Source of the DNA: Minisyncoccota bacterium
GTDB taxonomy: Bacteria > Patescibacteriota > Minisyncoccia > Phycocordibacterales > Zambryskibacteraceae
Assembly: GCA_020059045.1 (NCBI GenBank)
Contig: JAGVCW010000018.1
Span: 25,320 to 89,319, forward strand
Direction of reading: 5' to 3'
Length of the DNA: 64,000 nucleotides
In this document: positions 16,353 through 23,733 of the stretch, in pieces
Layout: each line of letters begins with the position of its first letter
Position numbering within the stretch: position 1 is the stretch's first letter
Program-made: the position numbers and the translations under genes
The notes under the pieces: generated by a model
The model's input: the letters and a program-made list of their open reading frames with translations, nothing else
What the model was told of the DNA's origin: nothing
Databases searched by the model: none

Positions 16353-16889
16353 ATGTCCACCTCGACTCGGAGCGATGCCATGAGTATCGGAGAAAGGGAT
16401 CCTAATGCAGAATACGTGGCCGGGGGTTTCAGGTATGAAACAAAAGTAGGATCGGGGACGATGGCCTGGATGCGAGATGGCGCACAGGTCACGGCGGCAG
16501 TGTCTCTCCGTGGAGATGTTGTACTTTTGGTTCTAGATGAGGTTCGCAGGTTAAAAAGTGAGCTTGCCAAAGAAAAAGCCATCAAAGTCGAACTAAGTAA
16601 GCTTGTGGATACAATTCGAGAAATTTTTCGTTTACATGTTGTTGTAGAAAATAGCACAATACTTTCGGCGGCACGTAACATAGCAGTTAATGCTGAACGA
16701 TGGATGAAGCTCCTTGCTTGCCCAAGAATTCGCGTGATGGGCACTGCATCCCTCGGGAGGCCAAACGGTCATATCGAAGTAGGACTGTGGGGTAGACATC
16801 CATCAAGTGATAGTCCTGAAACTGGAGGGAAGAGAATAATGGAAAAATTCGTCGATGGCCTTGACCATCTAAAGGGCCCACTGTTCTAG
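16353..16889 (+). CDS. hypothetical protein (GC-rich gene)
   Basis: 178 aa with no recognised family. A weak hairpin plus T6 follows the stop (CCACttgttgGTGGTTTTTT). Confidence 0.4.
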   Translation: MSTSTRSDAMSIGERDPNAEYVAGGFRYETKVGSGTMAWMRDGAQVTAAVSLRGDVVLLVLDEVRRLKSELAKEKAIKVELSKLVDTIREIFRLHVVVENSTILSAARNIAVNAERWMKLLACPRIRVMGTASLGRPNGHIEVGLWGRHPSSDSPETGGKRIMEKFVDGLDHLKGPLF

Positions 16890-16977: not shown

Positions 16978-17508
16978 ATGAATTATGTCTATCACGGTGT
17001 TCCGAAACGTATGGAGGGAAATATTCTTCATCCTCTAAGCATTCTAAAAACACAGTTCCCAGAAGTTTATTCTGAAGAAGTTCGTAAATATGCAGGAAGG
17101 GAACATGTAATGGAAAATAGAATTCCGATTTTTAATTGTCTATGGAACGATGTTTTGCATTTTGCGTGTGTACCACCAATTGAATTAAAAAATGCGTTAG
17201 TAGAAGCTGGAATGGCAGAGGCAGTTAAGCTCTCCTTCTATAAAATCGATACGTCTATTCTTGATAAGGAAAACTGTATTGTCTATTTAAACAACAAAAG
17301 AGAAAAAGGTGAACTGATGAGTGAAAGCGATTTTACACAATACGATCAAAATAATTTGAAACGATATTCTATAATTCCCCAGATTGCAAAAGATAAATAC
17401 AAAGAGGCCTATATTGCAGGAAAAACCCCTTTAATGTTTCTCTTTATTCCGCATATCCTTTACCGTGGTTCTGTTAATGTTTCTAGTGCAGAAATTATCA
17501 CCGTTTAG
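16978..17508 (+). CDS. hypothetical protein
   Basis: 176 aa, MNYVYHGVPKRMEGNILHPLSILK..., AT-rich. The family is unknown; an N-terminal YHG...NILHPLSIL motif is noted. Confidence 0.4.
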   Translation: MNYVYHGVPKRMEGNILHPLSILKTQFPEVYSEEVRKYAGREHVMENRIPIFNCLWNDVLHFACVPPIELKNALVEAGMAEAVKLSFYKIDTSILDKENCIVYLNNKREKGELMSESDFTQYDQNNLKRYSIIPQIAKDKYKEAYIAGKTPLMFLFIPHILYRGSVNVSSAEIITV

Positions 17509-18378
17509 CCAGTTATTCACTAAAGTTCTGTGTCCATAAAATTATCGAAGGGTCCCTCGTTATTGGCAAACTAAAATATAGCTCAATGAAACTTGCTTTT
17601 TAATCTATTTCGTGCTAATGTTATGGGAGTTAGTTCCATTAAATACTTTGCGTTCTCTCAGGAACCTTCGTCCTTCATTTCTCACAGATCACTGTGTGAA
17701 GCGAAGGGGGAGGCAGCCTGATTAGGGCAATGCAGGCATAAGTCGTGCCCGCCCAAGCTTCTCTCAACTTTACTTGTATGAAAATACTACGAGTTGTAGG
17801 GCTTGGACTTGCAATAGTCATGCTCAAGTTCCTAGTTCCTAGAATCTTTTTAGGAATCGAGAATGTCCTCCTCACGTTCTTTGATACCTTGGGGTCTATT
17901 TTTTCTCAGGTTAACCCGTCCGTAGACAGTGGCGCCGCGAGCATCGAGGCGACTCCGTTTCTTCATAGCAAATAGATTCCAAGAGGAGTCCTCGAGGCCA
18001 TTGCCCGAGGACTTTTCGTTATCCACAGGCCAGCACTTGCATGGTGAACCAGAGTTCACTAGAATAGTAACAAAGAGAGTAATGAATTATCAATTACTAC
18101 TTACTTACAACTAATTACTATTACAATGAGTGGAAACAAACTAGTTAGCACAATTTCAAGGGAGATTGAAAACTTGAATGAGGTCATTGATCTCAAAGTG
18201 ATACAAGGTATTCCTTACAAAAGGGAAGCGAAGAGACACAGATTACTTTTAAACATGTTACACGATGTGTCAGGCAAAATATCTTCAAATTCTTACAGCT
18301 TTTTATCCTTCCTACTATGAATTTATTCGTATTAATTCGTGTATTCGTATAATTCGTTGATTCGTATGTTTACTTAAA

Positions 18379-18951
18379 ATGAACAAAAAATTAGAACAAA
18401 AAGATAAGCTCCTAGATTTTTACAAGAAGAACCGCCGAATGCCCGGTTACAAGGAGATTATGGATTTACTTGGTTTTAAGTCTAAGAATTCTGTTCACAA
18501 GCTCATTACATGGTTAGTGGAGGAGGGGATAGTGTCGAAGGATGGTCAAGGCAGGATCATCCCGAACCAAATTTACGATGAGATCCCTATTCTTGGTCTT
18601 GTTGAAGCTGGTATGCCAAGTGAAGCAGATGTAGATGAGCTCGATCGGGTAAGTCTCGAAGAGTTTCTTATCGAAGACAAAGAGAAAAGTTATCTACTCG
18701 AAGTGAAGGGCGACTCCATGATAGACGCGCATATTAGCGAAGGGGACTATGTTTTAGTTGAGCGCAAAGGTGAGCCTCGAGAAGGAGACATTGTGATTGC
18801 CGAAGTAGATGGGGGATGGACCATGAAGTATTATCGCAAGAAAGGTGGCAAGCCTTACCTTGAACCTGCAAACCGGAAGTACAAACCCATTTTCCCAACA
18901 GAGAGTTTCCACGTTGCCGCAATTGTTAAAGCTATAATTAGGAAACTCTAG
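18379..18951 (+). CDS. lexA: LexA-family transcriptional repressor (S24 peptidase)
   Basis: 190 aa with an N-terminal winged-helix domain and the cleavage-site region LVEAGMPSE. The catalytic Ser lies in GDSM and the Lys in IVIAEVDGGWTMKYYRKKG. Confidence 0.85.
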   Translation: MNKKLEQKDKLLDFYKKNRRMPGYKEIMDLLGFKSKNSVHKLITWLVEEGIVSKDGQGRIIPNQIYDEIPILGLVEAGMPSEADVDELDRVSLEEFLIEDKEKSYLLEVKGDSMIDAHISEGDYVLVERKGEPREGDIVIAEVDGGWTMKYYRKKGGKPYLEPANRKYKPIFPTESFHVAAIVKAIIRKL

Positions 18952-18994
18952 GATATAAAAAACTGCCAGAATTATGGCAGTGCTACATTAGTCA

Positions 18995-20143
18995 TTAGTT
19001 AAACATTTCCACCTGCTCGAGGTCATTTACTTTTTCCTCCTTTTCACTATGGGGAGGTTTTTTCTCCAGTGAAGGAACAAAAGGTAGAGATATCCCTGAT
19101 TGATCAAAGAGGTCAAGAGGTTTTTGCCTCTTCCCACGAATCACCACAAGACCTTGCACGTAATAATTGGCAGACGGTATTGCCCACTGACATTTCTTTT
19201 CAATAGGGCAGCGACCACATGTTCGAAAGTATCGTGTTTCCTCTGTCTTGCTCCATCGCACTATTTTTTCTGTAATTCGAGTACGACGAGCTTCGTATTT
19301 CTCTGCAATAGAGGAGGCATTCGAGGGGCTATCACGACAAAACTCACGCGAAAGGTTCCAAAGAGCGTCAGCCAACTCTAGAGTCTCAACAGAGTTATTT
19401 TGACAATATTTGAGAGTGAGTATTCTCGCTTCGCGGCTTAGTCTATTAATACTTAGGGCAGTTCCAGGCTGAGTGGAGTCCACATAGAGTATTCCAGTTG
19501 ATACTAAGTCTCGCAGAATATGGAAATCTACAGGCACAGGGTAGGGAGGTGGCTTGACAATACCTGCATCTTCAAAAAACCATGTAAGCATGCTTGCCAT
19601 CTTGTGTCGAAAGCCGAAGAATCCATGCGGTTCCTCTGGGCCAGTCCTTTTCCCACGGCGGAACAGAATCTTACAAAGGTCCTCGTAAGTTTCTGCATTC
19701 TTGTAGAAAAGCACGGGGTTACCGTCCCAGTGTCGAGCAAGCTTGTGCATGTTATGCACCCAATGCCCACTAACATTTAGAGCATCAAAACTCAATCCAT
19801 TTTTACTAAGACTGTCAAAAACGCGACTTCGCAGCTCCGAAGAATTACCATTCAAGTGTTCGAAACTTTCAGGCTCAAACATCCATTGCTCTCGATCATA
19901 AAGTTGTGACAAAGCAATAAGAGCAGTTCCACTGTCTATCTTTCCTTTCATGTAGAAACATGAAAGTTTAAGAAATCTTGCATGTTCAGTGCTTCCCCAT
20001 GGGAATGTTTTCGGGATAATTTTCGGTCCCTGAACCCTTACTACATTATCGTATGGGGGGAGCTTGTTTCGCCAAGCATGTAGGAGAATGCCGAATACCT
20101 CATCGGCCAACTCCCAGTTAGTTTGGATTGCCGGTGCGCTCAC
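18995..20143 (-). CDS. endonuclease III-like HhH-GPD DNA glycosylase/lyase, atypically long
   Basis: 382 aa. The segment FGFRHKMASML...PVPVDFHILRDL parallels EndoIII GVGRKTANVV...AVDTHIFRV (HhH Lys and catalytic Asp). A C-terminal Cys cluster CGRCPIEKKC is present (C-x2-C-x5-C). Confidence 0.5.
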   Translation of the reverse strand: MSAPAIQTNWELADEVFGILLHAWRNKLPPYDNVVRVQGPKIIPKTFPWGSTEHARFLKLSCFYMKGKIDSGTALIALSQLYDREQWMFEPESFEHLNGNSSELRSRVFDSLSKNGLSFDALNVSGHWVHNMHKLARHWDGNPVLFYKNAETYEDLCKILFRRGKRTGPEEPHGFFGFRHKMASMLTWFFEDAGIVKPPPYPVPVDFHILRDLVSTGILYVDSTQPGTALSINRLSREARILTLKYCQNNSVETLELADALWNLSREFCRDSPSNASSIAEKYEARRTRITEKIVRWSKTEETRYFRTCGRCPIEKKCQWAIPSANYYVQGLVVIRGKRQKPLDLFDQSGISLPFVPSLEKKPPHSEKEEKVNDLEQVEMFN

Positions 20144-20273
20144 TTCTAGTCTCGGTTGTGAAGGTTCAATGGTCTTTTTACATTATATGTGTCATGCCTC
20201 GATTGTCCACTTCAAGGAATGGTTTTAAATACATATAATATTTGCTAGACACGTCCTTTAAAATGGAGCTTCG

Positions 20274-21095
20274 ATGGCAAGAGAACCTGCAGTTGCTAGT
20301 CGTAACCAAGATGGAAGACCTCACTTAAGTGATAGTGAGCGTACGCGGATAGCGAAAAATAGTTGGAAGAGAACTATGCGTAAAAATACAATGGGCACCG
20401 TAGGCGACTTCGGACAGAACATTGTCGCCGAACTGCTTGATTGCAGTATCTCTCCCCGTGGCAACACAGATTTTGCAGATCTTTTTAGCGAAAATCTGGG
20501 TATCCGAGTGGAAGTTAAGACTTGTGACAACAACCACAGGTTTGTATTCAAGCATAAGCAGTTACGCGGTTATCAAGATGAAGACTCAGTTCCGTTCCCC
20601 ATAAGTGATACGTTGTACGCACTTCTGGGGTACCGAAACAGAAAATCTATAAAAGATCATAAGCTGAGACCAAAGCGTCTTCGTTCGAAGACTTTTTCCG
20701 AACTCGCGAGGTTACTACTTCCTGGTGAACAAGCGCAATATCTTGCGGATCGTGTTGACGAGCTCTATCTTCTTGACCTTGATGTTGTGACAGCACTTGA
20801 GGACATTCTACCTACAAGTACCAATTACTTTCCTGGACATCAGGGCAAAACTTCAATGAGTGCTGGTAGGAGTGAATTGAGGAGTCTCTTCAGAGACAGT
20901 GATTTTTCTCGCCTCTGCAGGACACTAAAGCTCAAAGAGTGCTCTTGGGTTCGAGAAATTCTTCCCATCTCTCGACCGGTTTCAATAGGGGACCTGACAT
21001 TTACAGTGGAGTACCGTCTCATAGCTCTTTTGAAGAAAAGTACATACAAGATGCTTCTCCAGACGCTCCGTTCCAAGGCCCAATTACCACAGTAG
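20274..21095 (+). CDS. hypothetical protein with a PD-(D/E)xK nuclease-like motif
   Basis: 273 aa. The motif GDFGQNIVAELLDC...TDFADLFSENLGIRVEVKTCD follows the D...(E)VK pattern of restriction-endonuclease-fold nucleases. It is divergent from the EndoIII-like gene. Confidence 0.4.
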   Translation: MAREPAVASRNQDGRPHLSDSERTRIAKNSWKRTMRKNTMGTVGDFGQNIVAELLDCSISPRGNTDFADLFSENLGIRVEVKTCDNNHRFVFKHKQLRGYQDEDSVPFPISDTLYALLGYRNRKSIKDHKLRPKRLRSKTFSELARLLLPGEQAQYLADRVDELYLLDLDVVTALEDILPTSTNYFPGHQGKTSMSAGRSELRSLFRDSDFSRLCRTLKLKECSWVREILPISRPVSIGDLTFTVEYRLIALLKKSTYKMLLQTLRSKAQLPQ

Positions 21096-21393
21096 TTTGG
21101 GTCTTTTTAATATATTTGTGATTAATACTAGGTAGCCTTAAATAGACAAAATAGGATGACTATGACATATAGACAGGGTAGGGGAGTTGTGTTCTAGCAT
21201 TGCTATCCACATTTTAAAGATGCAATAAAAAAGAGATAATAGATGAAACCAGTTGCGGGGTTTAGTTAAAAGATAAACATTAAGATCCTATGAACACAGA
21301 AGAATATACAAGTAGTAACACTGTTTCATTCTCCGATTTACCAGACGTCGAGGACCCCGCAAACCAATACATCTGTGAATCCTGTGCATAAAG

Positions 21394-21424
21394 AAAAATC
21401 CTGACTCGTAGTCAGGGTTTTTTG
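21394..21424. terminator. bidirectional intrinsic terminator
   Basis: AAAAATCCTGACtcgtaGTCAGGGTTTTTTG, directly at the 3' end of the 21412-21699 minus gene. Confidence 0.6.
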
Positions 21425-21699
21425 TCATTGTTTCCATTTTTGTAAAGCCTTTTAAAGTAGTTTACAGTTGTCTTCATCTCAAGCTTCCAAAGCGGTAGAA
21501 ACATTCGAAAGAAAACTGAAAACAAGAGAAAGGCGAGTAGTGCAAGAATTGTAAGAGCAATCCCATAGAGAGGTCGTCTCTCAAAAACTATCACAAGCAG
21601 CAGAAGTCCGGTCCCTGTTGCAAGGCTTGCAGTATTGAGCAATGCTAGCCATGTGTAGCGAAGCTGGTAGAGTAGTCCATGTTGGTTGACTCTGCTCAT
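21412..21699 (-). CDS. small 2-TM membrane protein
   Basis: 95 aa, hydrophobic. Confidence 0.4.
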   Translation of the reverse strand: MSRVNQHGLLYQLRYTWLALLNTASLATGTGLLLLVIVFERRPLYGIALTILALLAFLLFSVFFRMFLPLWKLEMKTTVNYFKRLYKNGNNDKKP

Positions 21700-22129
21700 T
21701 TGTTCTCGACGGCTTGAAGTGTTGAAGTAAAAGAGCGGAAAGAAAATCTAAACTAACTATAGCTATATTTTATTTTATGTCCATTTTAAAACTAAAGGTA
21801 TATTTGGTAGATCCTTAAAGGGAAGTGATTTTAGTAGGAGCTTCCTAAGTATATGAACGTCGCACAATATATCTTTTACGACATTAAACTAGGTACATAA
21901 GATCGAGCCACTCCCCTAGTAACAAAAAAAATAAAAAAGAGGATTTATATTTTATGTACTTATTTAATTTAATTCCCCATCAATCAAGCAGGTCTTCCCA
22001 CCACTTAAACGTGTAATGCAAAAAAATGTACATTGGTACGTAAATTGGAGCCAACAGGAAAAATATGACAATTTTGGCTGTTTTCATTTTAGAACCTGTT
22101 ATATTACTTATTTTAAAATTTCTGTCTAA

Positions 22130-22414
22130 CTAGCTCTGGCCATCTACCCAACCCTTCATAGCGTCGAAGATTATAACGGCATATTTCCAGAAAATTCCGA
22201 CAATAACTGTGTTCCAAACATAAAGTACAGGTCCTGCAAGGAACTTTTCCCATACGAGAATTATAAATTTCTTAATATAACTAAAAACAGCAATCACTTC
22301 TGGTGAATTCAAAAAATCAATAATATTCCAATTAAAAAAGTATTTAGCGAGCGCCAAAGCAAATATGAGTACAAGTATTATGCCAATAAATCCTTTTTGA
22401 TTATTACTTTTCAT
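22130..22414 (-). CDS. small membrane protein
   Basis: 94 aa, hydrophobic, 4 nt upstream of the M23 peptidase gene. Confidence 0.4.
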   Translation of the reverse strand: MKSNNQKGFIGIILVLIFALALAKYFFNWNIIDFLNSPEVIAVFSYIKKFIILVWEKFLAGPVLYVWNTVIVGIFWKYAVIIFDAMKGWVDGQS

Positions 22415-22419
22415 TTGTA

Positions 22420-23733
22420 TTATAGTGGTGGCAAATATATAAGTGGGTCGAGATATGCGTTTGAGCTTGCCACAGGAATATCGACTTGTTTGCAGAAATT
22501 GCTCTGTGCATATTTCTGAATTCGTACTCCTTCAGAAGCATATAAACCTAGGTGAAGATGCGGGCCAGTTGAGTATCCTGAGCCATTTACGCCCGGCTGG
22601 CCACCACTGTATCCAATAATTTCTCCACCACTAACACTTTGGCCTACCGTGACTCTTGTGGTTGAGAGGTGGGCATAGAGGCTAGAAAGACCGTTAGGGT
22701 GCTTTATGAGGACCCAGCGACCATATGAATAGCATCCAGCCTGATCATCTGTGTTTCCAGCACCCTCTACTACCCCACTAAGAACCGATTTTACTGCAGT
22801 CCCCATAGATGCCCTGAAGTCGACTCCATTATGTGTTCCAGATACATATAATCTCTTTGAGTCCACCGTTTTGCCAAATCTCTGTGTTATAAGTACATTA
22901 TCAAGTGGCCAGCTAAGCACCCCTTCACGGACAGTAGGTAGCTTGCTTTTGTCTATTGCAAATTGGAGCTCAGATTCAAACATAAAGAGTTCTTGCTCAA
23001 ACTTCTTACCAAGCTCAATGTTTCTCTCAAGCATTTTCTTGTATTCACTTTCTTTGTTTTTTGTTTGTGACAAAAGTGTTGATTGAGCTTTCTTGCTTTG
23101 CTCCACAACCACTTTCTTGTCCGAAAGTTCCCCTTTGTAATCTACTAATTCAACTTTATGACTCTCGTTTTCTGTCTTTTTTTCCTCGAGATCATCCTTT
23201 AATCCGCCCAGTTCTCGCGTTCTCTGCCTGATAGTTTCCTGGAACCTTTTTAGCGTCTCTACACCATCCCATACCTGACTTACATTTTTGTACTGTAGTA
23301 GGTCCTCGAGGAGCGATCTTCGCTCAGATTCATACAAATTTCGTAGGCTTTCAGATATTGCGTCTTGGTTCGTCTTTATACTTTCCTGTGTATCGGTTAT
23401 TTCAAATCCAAGTTTCTGTATGGACAGCTCAGTGCTTGAAATTTTAGTTTGCGTTACTTTCAGATCATTTTCCAATTTCTTCTGTGTCGTTTCAAGACTC
23501 TTAACTGCACCCTGTAGTGTCGCAGCTTGTTTTGCTGTTTCTGCAATTTGGGCCTCAAGTTTTTTGTTCTCTTCCTCTATCCGAGCTTTTTCAAGTCGCT
23601 TTGCCTCAATTTGTAACTTGAGCTCATCGATTGTTAGTGCATGTGCCACGGGTAGCGCATGCATGTCTAATGTCGCACAATATGTGGTCAAAATAGTAAA
23701 CGCAATAATAAATATAAATGTTTTATTTCTCAT
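22420..23733 (-). CDS. M23 family metallopeptidase with a long N-terminal coiled coil (EnvC/LytM-like)
   Basis: 437 aa with a signal peptide and an extended coiled-coil. The C-terminus carries HNGVDFRASMGTAV and GPHLHLGLY, the M23 HxxxD and HxH motifs. Confidence 0.85.
   Translation of the reverse strand: MRNKTFIFIIAFTILTTYCATLDMHALPVAHALTIDELKLQIEAKRLEKARIEEENKKLEAQIAETAKQAATLQGAVKSLETTQKKLENDLKVTQTKISSTELSIQKLGFEITDTQESIKTNQDAISESLRNLYESERRSLLEDLLQYKNVSQVWDGVETLKRFQETIRQRTRELGGLKDDLEEKKTENESHKVELVDYKGELSDKKVVVEQSKKAQSTLLSQTKNKESEYKKMLERNIELGKKFEQELFMFESELQFAIDKSKLPTVREGVLSWPLDNVLITQRFGKTVDSKRLYVSGTHNGVDFRASMGTAVKSVLSGVVEGAGNTDDQAGCYSYGRWVLIKHPNGLSSLYAHLSTTRVTVGQSVSGGEIIGYSGGQPGVNGSGYSTGPHLHLGLYASEGVRIQKYAQSNFCKQVDIPVASSNAYLDPLIYLPPL

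Follow-up and report, generated by a model that had tools for sequence, protein, structure and literature searches.

Organization of the Locus

The 64,000 nucleotide (nt) stretch of DNA analyzed here, called the window, was taken from the Minisyncoccota bacterium assembly GCA_020059045.1 (contig JAGVCW010000018.1, positions 25,320–89,319 of the forward strand), and it harbors two divergently transcribed genes that probably form a base-excision repair module of the Patescibacteria. The first, an open reading frame (ORF) of 382 amino acids (aa) with a GTG start codon, lies on the minus strand at 18995–20143 and encodes a glycosylase-like protein. The second, a 273 aa ORF, occupies 20274–21095 of the plus strand and encodes a nuclease-like protein. 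The spacer between them measures 130 bp (20144–20273). This divergent arrangement, with the same positions and spacer, had been described in an earlier model-made reading of the letters alone (the first-pass annotation) and is confirmed here.

Scans of Pfam, NCBIfam and PADLOC returned no match for either protein, and neither family is covered by these collections or by PHROGs. The cluster members of both families are named only “hypothetical protein,” and a full-text literature search found no description of either family.

The Glycosylase-Like Protein

A word-indexed search of 5.8 billion proteins found just nine relatives of the 382 aa protein, and a search of PDB sequences with the single protein found nothing significant. 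Conservation was read from 35 homologs, which are 27–55% identical to the window protein. In this set K181, D206, C269, C309, C312 and C318 are invariant, and so are the strings FGFRHKMASML and PVPVDFHILR, both present in the window protein. In hhalign, GFRHK181MASM is aligned with GVGRK120TANV of endonuclease III (EndoIII), and VPVD206FHILR with IAVD138THIFR (P 1e-3); the Escherichia coli Nth sequence used here was verified against 2abk. The first-pass annotation had lined up an HhH-GPD core with Lys120 and Asp138 of EndoIII, and this alignment is right because hhalign pairs K181 with K120 and D206 with D138 and the residues concerned are invariant.

The structural model of the 382 aa protein (pTM 0.67) has the two-domain, all-helical HhH-GPD fold of EndoIII, MutY, AlkA, OGG and AGOG. 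Structure comparison gave scores of 12.8, 12.4 and 11.7 for three EndoIII structures, 12.2 and 11.9 for two structures of QNG1 (DUF2419), 11.3 for NTHL1, 10.8 each for MutY and MIG, and 10.2 for AGOG, with identities of only 12–16% in the structural alignments. In the predicted model, a helix begins at residue 207, just behind PPPYPVPVD206, so the invariant Asp stands at a helix N-terminus behind a Gly/Pro-rich loop, as in the HhH-GPD superfamily. The invariant K181, by its alignment with K120, takes the position that the Lys nucleophile of the bifunctional glycosylase/apurinic-apyrimidinic (AP) lyases has at the beginning of the second HhH helix. Within the HhH-GPD superfamily, a Lys at this position marks the bifunctional enzymes. 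The protein keeps the K181 and D206 of such enzymes (EndoIII, AGOG), and base excision together with cutting of the abasic site is therefore predicted for it.

AGOG, the archaeal 8-oxoguanine glycosylase/lyase (PF09171), is the sole family with a signal at the sequence level. The 35-member profile, searched against PDB sequences, matched only Pa-AGOG (1xqo/1xqp) at the PIPVD of PIPVDYRVARL (E 1.1), and six of the 35 members weakly matched Pfam AGOG (best E 3.6e-4, one member). These signals are below significance, and the window protein itself gave no match to PF09171 and does not reach its gathering score. The two families share the P-x-P-V-D element and the Lys/Asp pair of a bifunctional enzyme, whereas AGOG is archaeal and has no Cys cluster, and the window family is patescibacterial.

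With EndoIII/Nth (E. coli Nth, Deinococcus radiodurans EndoIII-1 and EndoIII-3) the protein shares Lys and Asp at the aligned catalytic positions, but it is about 170 residues longer and has a long loop where EndoIII has a tight helix-hairpin-helix (HhH) hairpin. The additional length comprises about 60 N-terminal residues (K181 versus K120), an insertion of about 50 residues that separates the Asp from the Cys cluster, and a tail at the C-terminus; the roughly 150 extra N-terminal residues of the first-pass annotation shrink to an offset of only about 60 at the catalytic Lys. None of the 35 members matched Pfam HhH-GPD (PF00730) at E ≤ 1, the canonical h-P-G-h-G helix-hairpin-helix is missing from the window protein, and there is no match to NCBIfam Nth. 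That the protein might be an ordinary Nth or MutY ortholog, which the first-pass annotation had named as one part of the outcome that would undo its reading, was rejected since there is no Pfam or NCBIfam match and word search found only nine relatives. When E. coli Nth was used as a phmmer query, neither the window nor the fetched loci yielded an Nth-like ORF, a scope that does not take in the rest of the genome. The evidence supports a glycosylase-type protein of the HhH-GPD superfamily (EndoIII/AGOG-like) in a previously unannotated family, which is a new family inside a well-known superfamily.

The Cys residues of the protein are arranged in an unusual way. The deeper-profile hhalign sets CGRCPIEKKC (C309-x2-C312-x5-C318) against CGSCIIEDLC, the iron-sulfur (Fe-S) cluster loop of EndoIII. 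Of the canonical C-x6-C-x2-C-x5-C ligand set only C-x2-C-x5-C is present. The first cluster Cys of EndoIII has no counterpart and a 13-residue insertion is found there instead, while the invariant C269 sits about 40 residues upstream of the Cys cluster. Both the trio and the missing first Cys had been noticed in the first-pass annotation, and hhalign and conservation bear this out. Weak matches of family members were obtained to WhiB (four members) and to EndIII_4Fe-2S (one member). Given its invariance, C269 could be the fourth cluster ligand, as a substitute for the canonical first Cys.

The C-terminal tail resembles those of proteins that bind the DnaN sliding clamp. In bacteria, the consensus for binding to the beta-clamp is a C-terminal QL(S/D)LF (PMC9690074). 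Of the 49 family members, 24 have a strict Qx2[LMIVF]F pentapeptide in the C-terminal tail, as against 2 of 268 tails from control ORFs with an equal mean length, and the pentapeptides across the family include QLNLF, QLGLF, QLTLF, QMNLF and QSDLF. The window protein has two putative motifs of this kind, LDLF and QVEMF. QxxLF-type tails point to a protein that would work with the replication and repair machinery. The C-termini of about 50 homologs also show that the longer family proteins often carry two QxxLF-type motifs, one just past the core and one at the very end.

It is also conceivable that the 382 aa protein works off DNA and, like QNG1 (DUF2419) in the salvage of queuine, hydrolyzes an RNA base or a free nucleotide, with the nuclease supplying the substrate by breaking down nucleic acid. 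The heavy dependence of Patescibacteria on salvage would suit such a role. Nevertheless, the role appears highly improbable, as the family has an invariant Lys at the position of the EndoIII Schiff-base Lys and a motif resembling the EndoIII Fe-S cluster loop, which is a DNA-binding element in EndoIII and MutY. Furthermore, the clamp-binding-like tails point to DNA, and no family member matched Pfam QNG1/DUF2419.

The Nuclease-Like Partner

A word-indexed search with the 273 aa protein found the protein itself alone. Reading the neighbors of the glycosylase homologs yielded relatives that are 27–32% identical over the full length, and a profile search of 1.84 billion cluster representatives yielded 135 relatives at E ≤ 0.001, nearly all of them 220–270 aa long, which puts the family at 135 clusters at least. 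Four much longer candidates (P0074, P0136, P0139 and P0148; 862–1309 aa) were low-complexity artifacts and were discarded.

In 125 members of the family, D69 is conserved in 95%, E80 in 96%, K82 in 99% and Q96 in 98%, and position 100 is His or Tyr in 77%; the near-invariant positions are D69, E80, K82, Q96, Y115, Y120 and D168. The resulting signature, D-x10-ExK-x13-QxxxY/H, contains the acidic residue and the (D/E)xK motif by which the PD-(D/E)xK superfamily is recognized. The D-x10-ExK pattern is that of PD-(D/E)xK nucleases, with a QxxxY element reminiscent of the RecB/Cas4 type. An AlphaFold model made from eight sequences reached a pLDDT of 54 and, at this low confidence, places D69 and ExK on consecutive strands behind a helix.

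Searches beyond the motif gave scattered weak matches. Members of the family matched RE_Eco47II (three members, 0.016), RecU (one member, E 0.001) and Tox-REase-5 (0.061), and hhalign to Pyrococcus furiosus Hjc, whose sequence was verified, set D..ExK on D33..E46-x-K48 (P 0.088). The alignment to MutH, made with an unverified MutH sequence, gave nothing, and searches of PDB sequences with the single nuclease and with family profiles gave nothing significant; no profile or structural match to a PD-(D/E)xK family reached significance. The 273 aa protein resembles Hjc/RecU and the RecB/Cas4-like nucleases in its D-x10-ExK and QxxxY/H elements and in the modeled order of helix and D/ExK strands. 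It differs from them in an extra C-terminal half of about 130 residues to which no fold is assigned, in lacking the Cys cluster of Cas4/AddB, and in being tied to a glycosylase gene. Judged from its motif, the protein is likely a PD-(D/E)xK-type nuclease. The D...EVK motif reported in the first-pass annotation is firmly conserved, whereas the nuclease fold named with it is not confirmed by the poor model.

Pairing and Distribution of the Two Genes

The detected relatives of the glycosylase are restricted to the Patescibacteria. A species-level scan, with one genome per GTDB species, yielded 24 loci, of which 20 are labeled Patescibacteria, three only “bacterium” and one a Gammaproteobacteria bin. 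The patescibacterial groups represented are Parcubacteria, Paceibacterota, Saccharibacteria, Campbellbacteria, Wolfebacteria and Moraniibacteriota. A metagenome scan added 16 further loci, and a scan of IMG/VR viral contigs found no glycosylase relatives. The locus from the “uncultured Gammaproteobacteria” bin (L025, CAYRBH010000007.1) may be mislabeled or contaminated.

All 25 fetched loci that have the nuclease gene and enough flanking sequence also carry the glycosylase gene, and about 20 of them are distinct. The first-pass annotation had proposed that the two genes could form a unit, and the pair does recur across genomes, with many glycosylases standing alone. The gap between the matched stretches is 130–300 bp. 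Most pairs are divergent, and the others are tandem, with either gene first, or convergent. The exception to this linkage is one contig pair of 1.1 and 1.5 kb, on which the nuclease gene has no glycosylase neighbor. In a neighbor-joining tree of the glycosylase, two large clades consist of paired genes, which also occur here and there in a third clade, and a Mantel test shows a correlation between the distance matrices of glycosylase and nuclease (r 0.39, p 5e-4).

Such linkage bears on the possibility that the two enzymes are co-regulated yet independent, the glycosylase being the Nth/Ogg equivalent of the lineage and its partner a general structure-specific nuclease (for example an Hjc/RecU-like resolvase) with nothing but a promoter region in common with it. 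The glycosylase is often alone, one nuclease-family member weakly matches RecU, and the D..ExK motif aligns with the catalytic motif of Hjc, all of which would be expected from independent enzymes. However, the RecU and Hjc matches are not significant, the adjacency persists over four gene orientations that do not all have a common promoter, and the nuclease gene lacks the glycosylase as neighbor only on the short contig pair, so that independence of the two enzymes is regarded as unlikely.

The Divergent Promoter Region and lexA

The spacer is strikingly conserved, although the flanking proteins are only 30–50% identical. Eleven divergent spacers were compared, namely those of the window and of L001, L003, L004, L006, L007, L009, L012, L013, L016 and L019. 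Across them recur the blocks GTGAAGGTTC, CTAGTCTC, GCATTATATGTGTC, TTGTCYACTAG and TATAAT, plus AGA..GAACCTTCAC ahead of the ribosome-binding site of the nuclease gene. The element AGAC..GAACCTTCAC is common to both predicted leaders, where it stands just ahead of the ribosome-binding site, and CTAGT/ACTAG arms lie on either side of the glycosylase core promoter. In the window spacer, CTAGTCTC and GTGAAGGTTC stand in reversed order and GAACCTTCAC is missing from the leader of the nuclease gene. By its sequence, part of the conserved spacer is the predicted promoter of the glycosylase gene and part is the predicted −10 element of the nuclease gene. Given where the −10 boxes stand, the remaining element would form the beginning of both leaders. 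Elsewhere in the window the spacer blocks do not recur beyond chance.

The module adjoins lexA, as the first-pass annotation had stated: the neighboring ORF at 18379–18951 matches TIGR00498 with 115.5 bits (cut-off 110.95) and Peptidase_S24 with 9.5e-26. Five direct repeats ATTCGT(A/G)T, 8–10 bp apart, lie at 18325–18368 just upstream of the lexA start, and a similar triple repeat, ATTCGATTA, was found in the distant locus L032 (Moraniibacteriota) at 2221–2250, just upstream of TTGACT, which resembles a −35 element of the glycosylase gene. Beyond the window and L032, no ATTCGT-type array was found in the fetched loci. The array might be an operator, possibly that of LexA.

These repeats, and the place of lexA next to the module, are what would be expected if the module belonged to the LexA (SOS) regulon, as the first-pass annotation had suggested when it pointed to the divergent spacer as the place for a LexA box. 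Several observations make this very improbable. The lexA gene is convergent with the glycosylase gene and the two have no common promoter; lexA is absent beside the module in all of the other roughly 50 loci; and the spacer blocks are not found beyond chance elsewhere in the window. The ATTCGT repeat from upstream of lexA is also absent from 20144–20273, a partial test in that the LexA operator of this lineage is not identified. Neither a recurrent lexA link nor, within that partial test, an operator in the promoter was therefore found, and the position of the module next to lexA is coincidental.

A Predicted Base-Excision Repair Module

The reading favored here, to which we give a probability of about one half, is that the pair is a base-excision repair module specific to the Patescibacteria, consisting of a predicted clamp-recruited glycosylase/lyase and an accessory nuclease. 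The glycosylase would remove a base that is damaged or mispaired and would cut the resulting abasic site by beta-elimination via a Schiff base. Four invariant Cys (C269 and C309-x2-C312-x5-C318) would hold a [4Fe-4S] cluster, with the first ligand moved about 40 residues upstream. The C-terminal QxxLF-type motifs would anchor the glycosylase on DnaN, the sliding clamp, and so tie its action to replication or to repair synthesis. The nuclease would act after the glycosylase, either incising the abasic site or removing the blocked 3′ end left by the lyase, and polymerase and ligase would then finish the repair.

Several points weigh against this reading. The activities of both proteins are predicted ones. 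In 15 of the 24 genome loci there is no nuclease gene within 3 kb of the glycosylase, as judged by an iterated search with a hidden Markov model (HMM) built from the 135 representatives, and of the 16 metagenome loci, a number of them short contigs, just 2 have the nuclease gene. The HhH hairpin of the glycosylase is atypical, being an 18-residue low-confidence loop in which the second hairpin Gly is replaced by Arg. Against single templates, the hhalign scores are weak (P about 1e-3), and in any one sequence a clamp motif of five residues counts for little. Because many glycosylase loci have no nuclease nearby, the nuclease may be dispensable or encoded elsewhere. The nuclease is nearly always beside the glycosylase while the reverse does not hold, which makes the glycosylase the core of the pair and the nuclease its dependent accessory.

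The first-pass annotation had left open a repair or a restriction module, and of the two, repair is favored and restriction is less likely. In a restriction role, the pair would be a modification-dependent (type IV-like) restriction or anti-phage module, in which the glycosylase excises a modified base of foreign DNA and the nuclease turns the abasic sites into breaks. The restriction glycosylases of the R.PabI family and the anti-phage glycosylases (Brig1) follow the same concept of base excision and then strand cleavage. They have other folds, and they are paired with methyltransferases or found in defense contexts. An unannotated two-gene cassette of glycosylase and nuclease would suit this role, as would the faster evolution of the nuclease (29% mean pairwise identity versus 39% for the glycosylase), its presence in some lineages only, the different genomic place of the module between clades, and the weak match of three nuclease-family members to RE_Eco47II. 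However, none of the pairing or defense features of the R.PabI family and Brig1 were found at the module. PADLOC gave no match at a meaningful E-value, IMG/VR held no relatives, and there is no defense-island or mobile-element context and no flanking repeat. Among the loci with Pfam-labeled genes, no DNA methyltransferase gene is listed beside the module, and the methyltransferase seen in L004/L005, a UbiE-type enzyme, belongs to those that act on small molecules; neither a cognate DNA methyltransferase nor a known defense protein accompanies the pair. Furthermore, the glycosylase is commonly alone with its catalytic residues intact, clamp-binding-like tails mark replication and repair proteins, and the synteny with bipA, truB and cmk is retained inside one clade. 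A restriction role is accordingly considered unlikely.

A bolder form of the repair reading can be drawn, which we hold to be tentative and rather doubtful. The pair would then be a self-contained, clamp-directed repair system found only in Patescibacteria, in which DnaN places the Fe-S glycosylase so that it marks a lesion or mispair on new DNA and the dedicated PD-(D/E)xK nuclease, existing solely as its partner, incises the strand. In these reduced genomes such a system would replace the canonical AP endonucleases or mismatch repair, and the deeply conserved leader element of both mRNAs would be its own regulatory switch.

The Patescibacteria (candidate phyla radiation), whose genomes are very small, account for much of the diversity of bacteria, and hardly any work exists on how they repair their DNA. 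Two protein families that the domain libraries do not recognize are defined here. To our knowledge, the displaced Cys ligand, the clamp-motif tail and the obligate nuclease partner are new, and EndoIII likewise differs from the window family in having neither such a tail nor a dedicated neighboring nuclease gene. If the base-excision repair reading holds, the glycosylase would be a new branch of the HhH-GPD superfamily and a natural test case for the role of the Fe-S cluster loop when its first ligand is relocated, and the pair would add a new bacterial case in which a base-excision enzyme is linked to the sliding clamp and has a nuclease of its own that acts downstream. Both enzymes might also serve as reagents if their base specificity proves unusual.

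Genomic Surroundings and Further Features

The positions of the features in the window are collected in Table 1.

Table 1. Features of the glycosylase/nuclease locus, with positions numbered from the first letter of the window.
Feature	Position	Strand or location	Basis
Terminator-like hairpin followed by a T-run	18962–18981	minus	lies between the convergent lexA and glycosylase genes
HhH-GPD-superfamily glycosylase-like gene, 382 aa	18995–20143	minus	GTG start
Q377-F381 QVEMF, second clamp-binding-like motif, one residue from the C-terminus	19001–19015	minus	family C-termini, enrichment
L343-F346 LDLF (PLDLF), first clamp-binding-like motif, directly past the catalytic core	19106–19117	minus	family C-termini, enrichment, consensus
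C309-x2-C312-x5-C318 (CGRCPIEKKC), Fe-S-cluster-loop-like	19190–19219	minus	conservation, hhalign
C269, invariant, candidate displaced fourth Fe-S ligand	19337–19339	minus	conservation in 35 sequences; ligand role putative
Y201-R211 YPVPVDFHILR, Pro-rich loop then D206 (19526–19528), “GPD” element	19511–19543	minus	conservation, EndoIII/AGOG alignment
G174-M185 GFFGFRHKMASM, helix-hairpin-helix-like, K181 at 19601–19603	19589–19624	minus	conservation, hhalign, model helix from residue 179
Divergent promoter/leader region	20144–20273	.	blocks conserved in 11 divergent loci
Conserved block CTAGTCTC	20146–20153	spacer	11-locus conservation
Conserved block GTGAAGGTTC	20158–20167	spacer	11-locus conservation
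Conserved block CATTATATGTGTC	20181–20193	spacer	11-locus conservation
Predicted glycosylase promoter TGGACA-16-TATAAT	20209 to 20182	minus	best sigma-70-like site of the region, 11/12 positions
Conserved block TTGTCCACT	20203–20211	spacer	11-locus conservation
Predicted nuclease −10 TATAAT	20234–20239	spacer	
Predicted nuclease Shine-Dalgarno GGAG	20265–20268	spacer	
Putative PD-(D/E)xK-type nuclease gene, 273 aa, glycosylase partner	20274–21095	plus	ORF, ATG 20274 past GGAG
Putative active site: D69 (20478–20480), E80-V-K82 (20511–20519), Q96-x3-Y100 (20559–20573)	20478–20573	plus	conservation in 125 sequences

The neighbors of the module are housekeeping genes, here and in the relatives, for example ftsH/smpB, bipA/truB/cmk and gyrA. 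The module has a GC content of 0.444, compared with 0.409 in the window as a whole (z 1.66), and 5.8% of windows of the same size reach or exceed it. The modest GC rise seen in the first-pass annotation is real, though unremarkable. The horizontal acquisition that was read from it finds no backing, given this z value, the housekeeping surroundings and a search for flanking repeats at a mobile-element boundary, which returned short, chance-level ones only. A search of the stretch 17500–22500 against Rfam gave zero matches. Upstream of lexA lie two ORFs, at 16353–16889 (178 aa) and 16978–17508 (176 aa), which have no match in Pfam, NCBIfam or PADLOC.

Stand-alone glycosylase genes have neighbors of their own. 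In some Saccharibacteria they adjoin genes for a UvrC-like protein, a DnaQ-like exonuclease and MazG, a setting that speaks for a role in repair, as do the housekeeping surroundings of the module. The neighbors in L026, L027 and L029 are mutually similar and include a UvrC-like GIY-YIG nuclease as well as a DnaQ-like exonuclease. In four other loci, a homologous ORF of about 380–400 aa lies directly downstream of the stand-alone glycosylase (L015 4138–5346, L021 4065–5204, L022 4059–5213, L033 4167–5357), and in L015 and L021, the two that were scanned, it has ParB N-terminal and/or ParB HTH domains.

A 21 nt sequence, GGTCTTTTTACATTATATGTG, at 20171–20191 overlaps the −10 region of the glycosylase gene, and a copy of 81% identity stands at 21100–21120, just past the nuclease stop codon; this recurrence may be due to chance. 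The public JGI gene calls, 318 aa for the glycosylase and 234 aa for the nuclease, are shorter than the ORFs used here. The long ORFs are favored because the homologs conserve N-terminal residues of both proteins, and the 234 aa call is too short because the ATG at 20274 follows GGAG and residues 28–40 align with the homologs.

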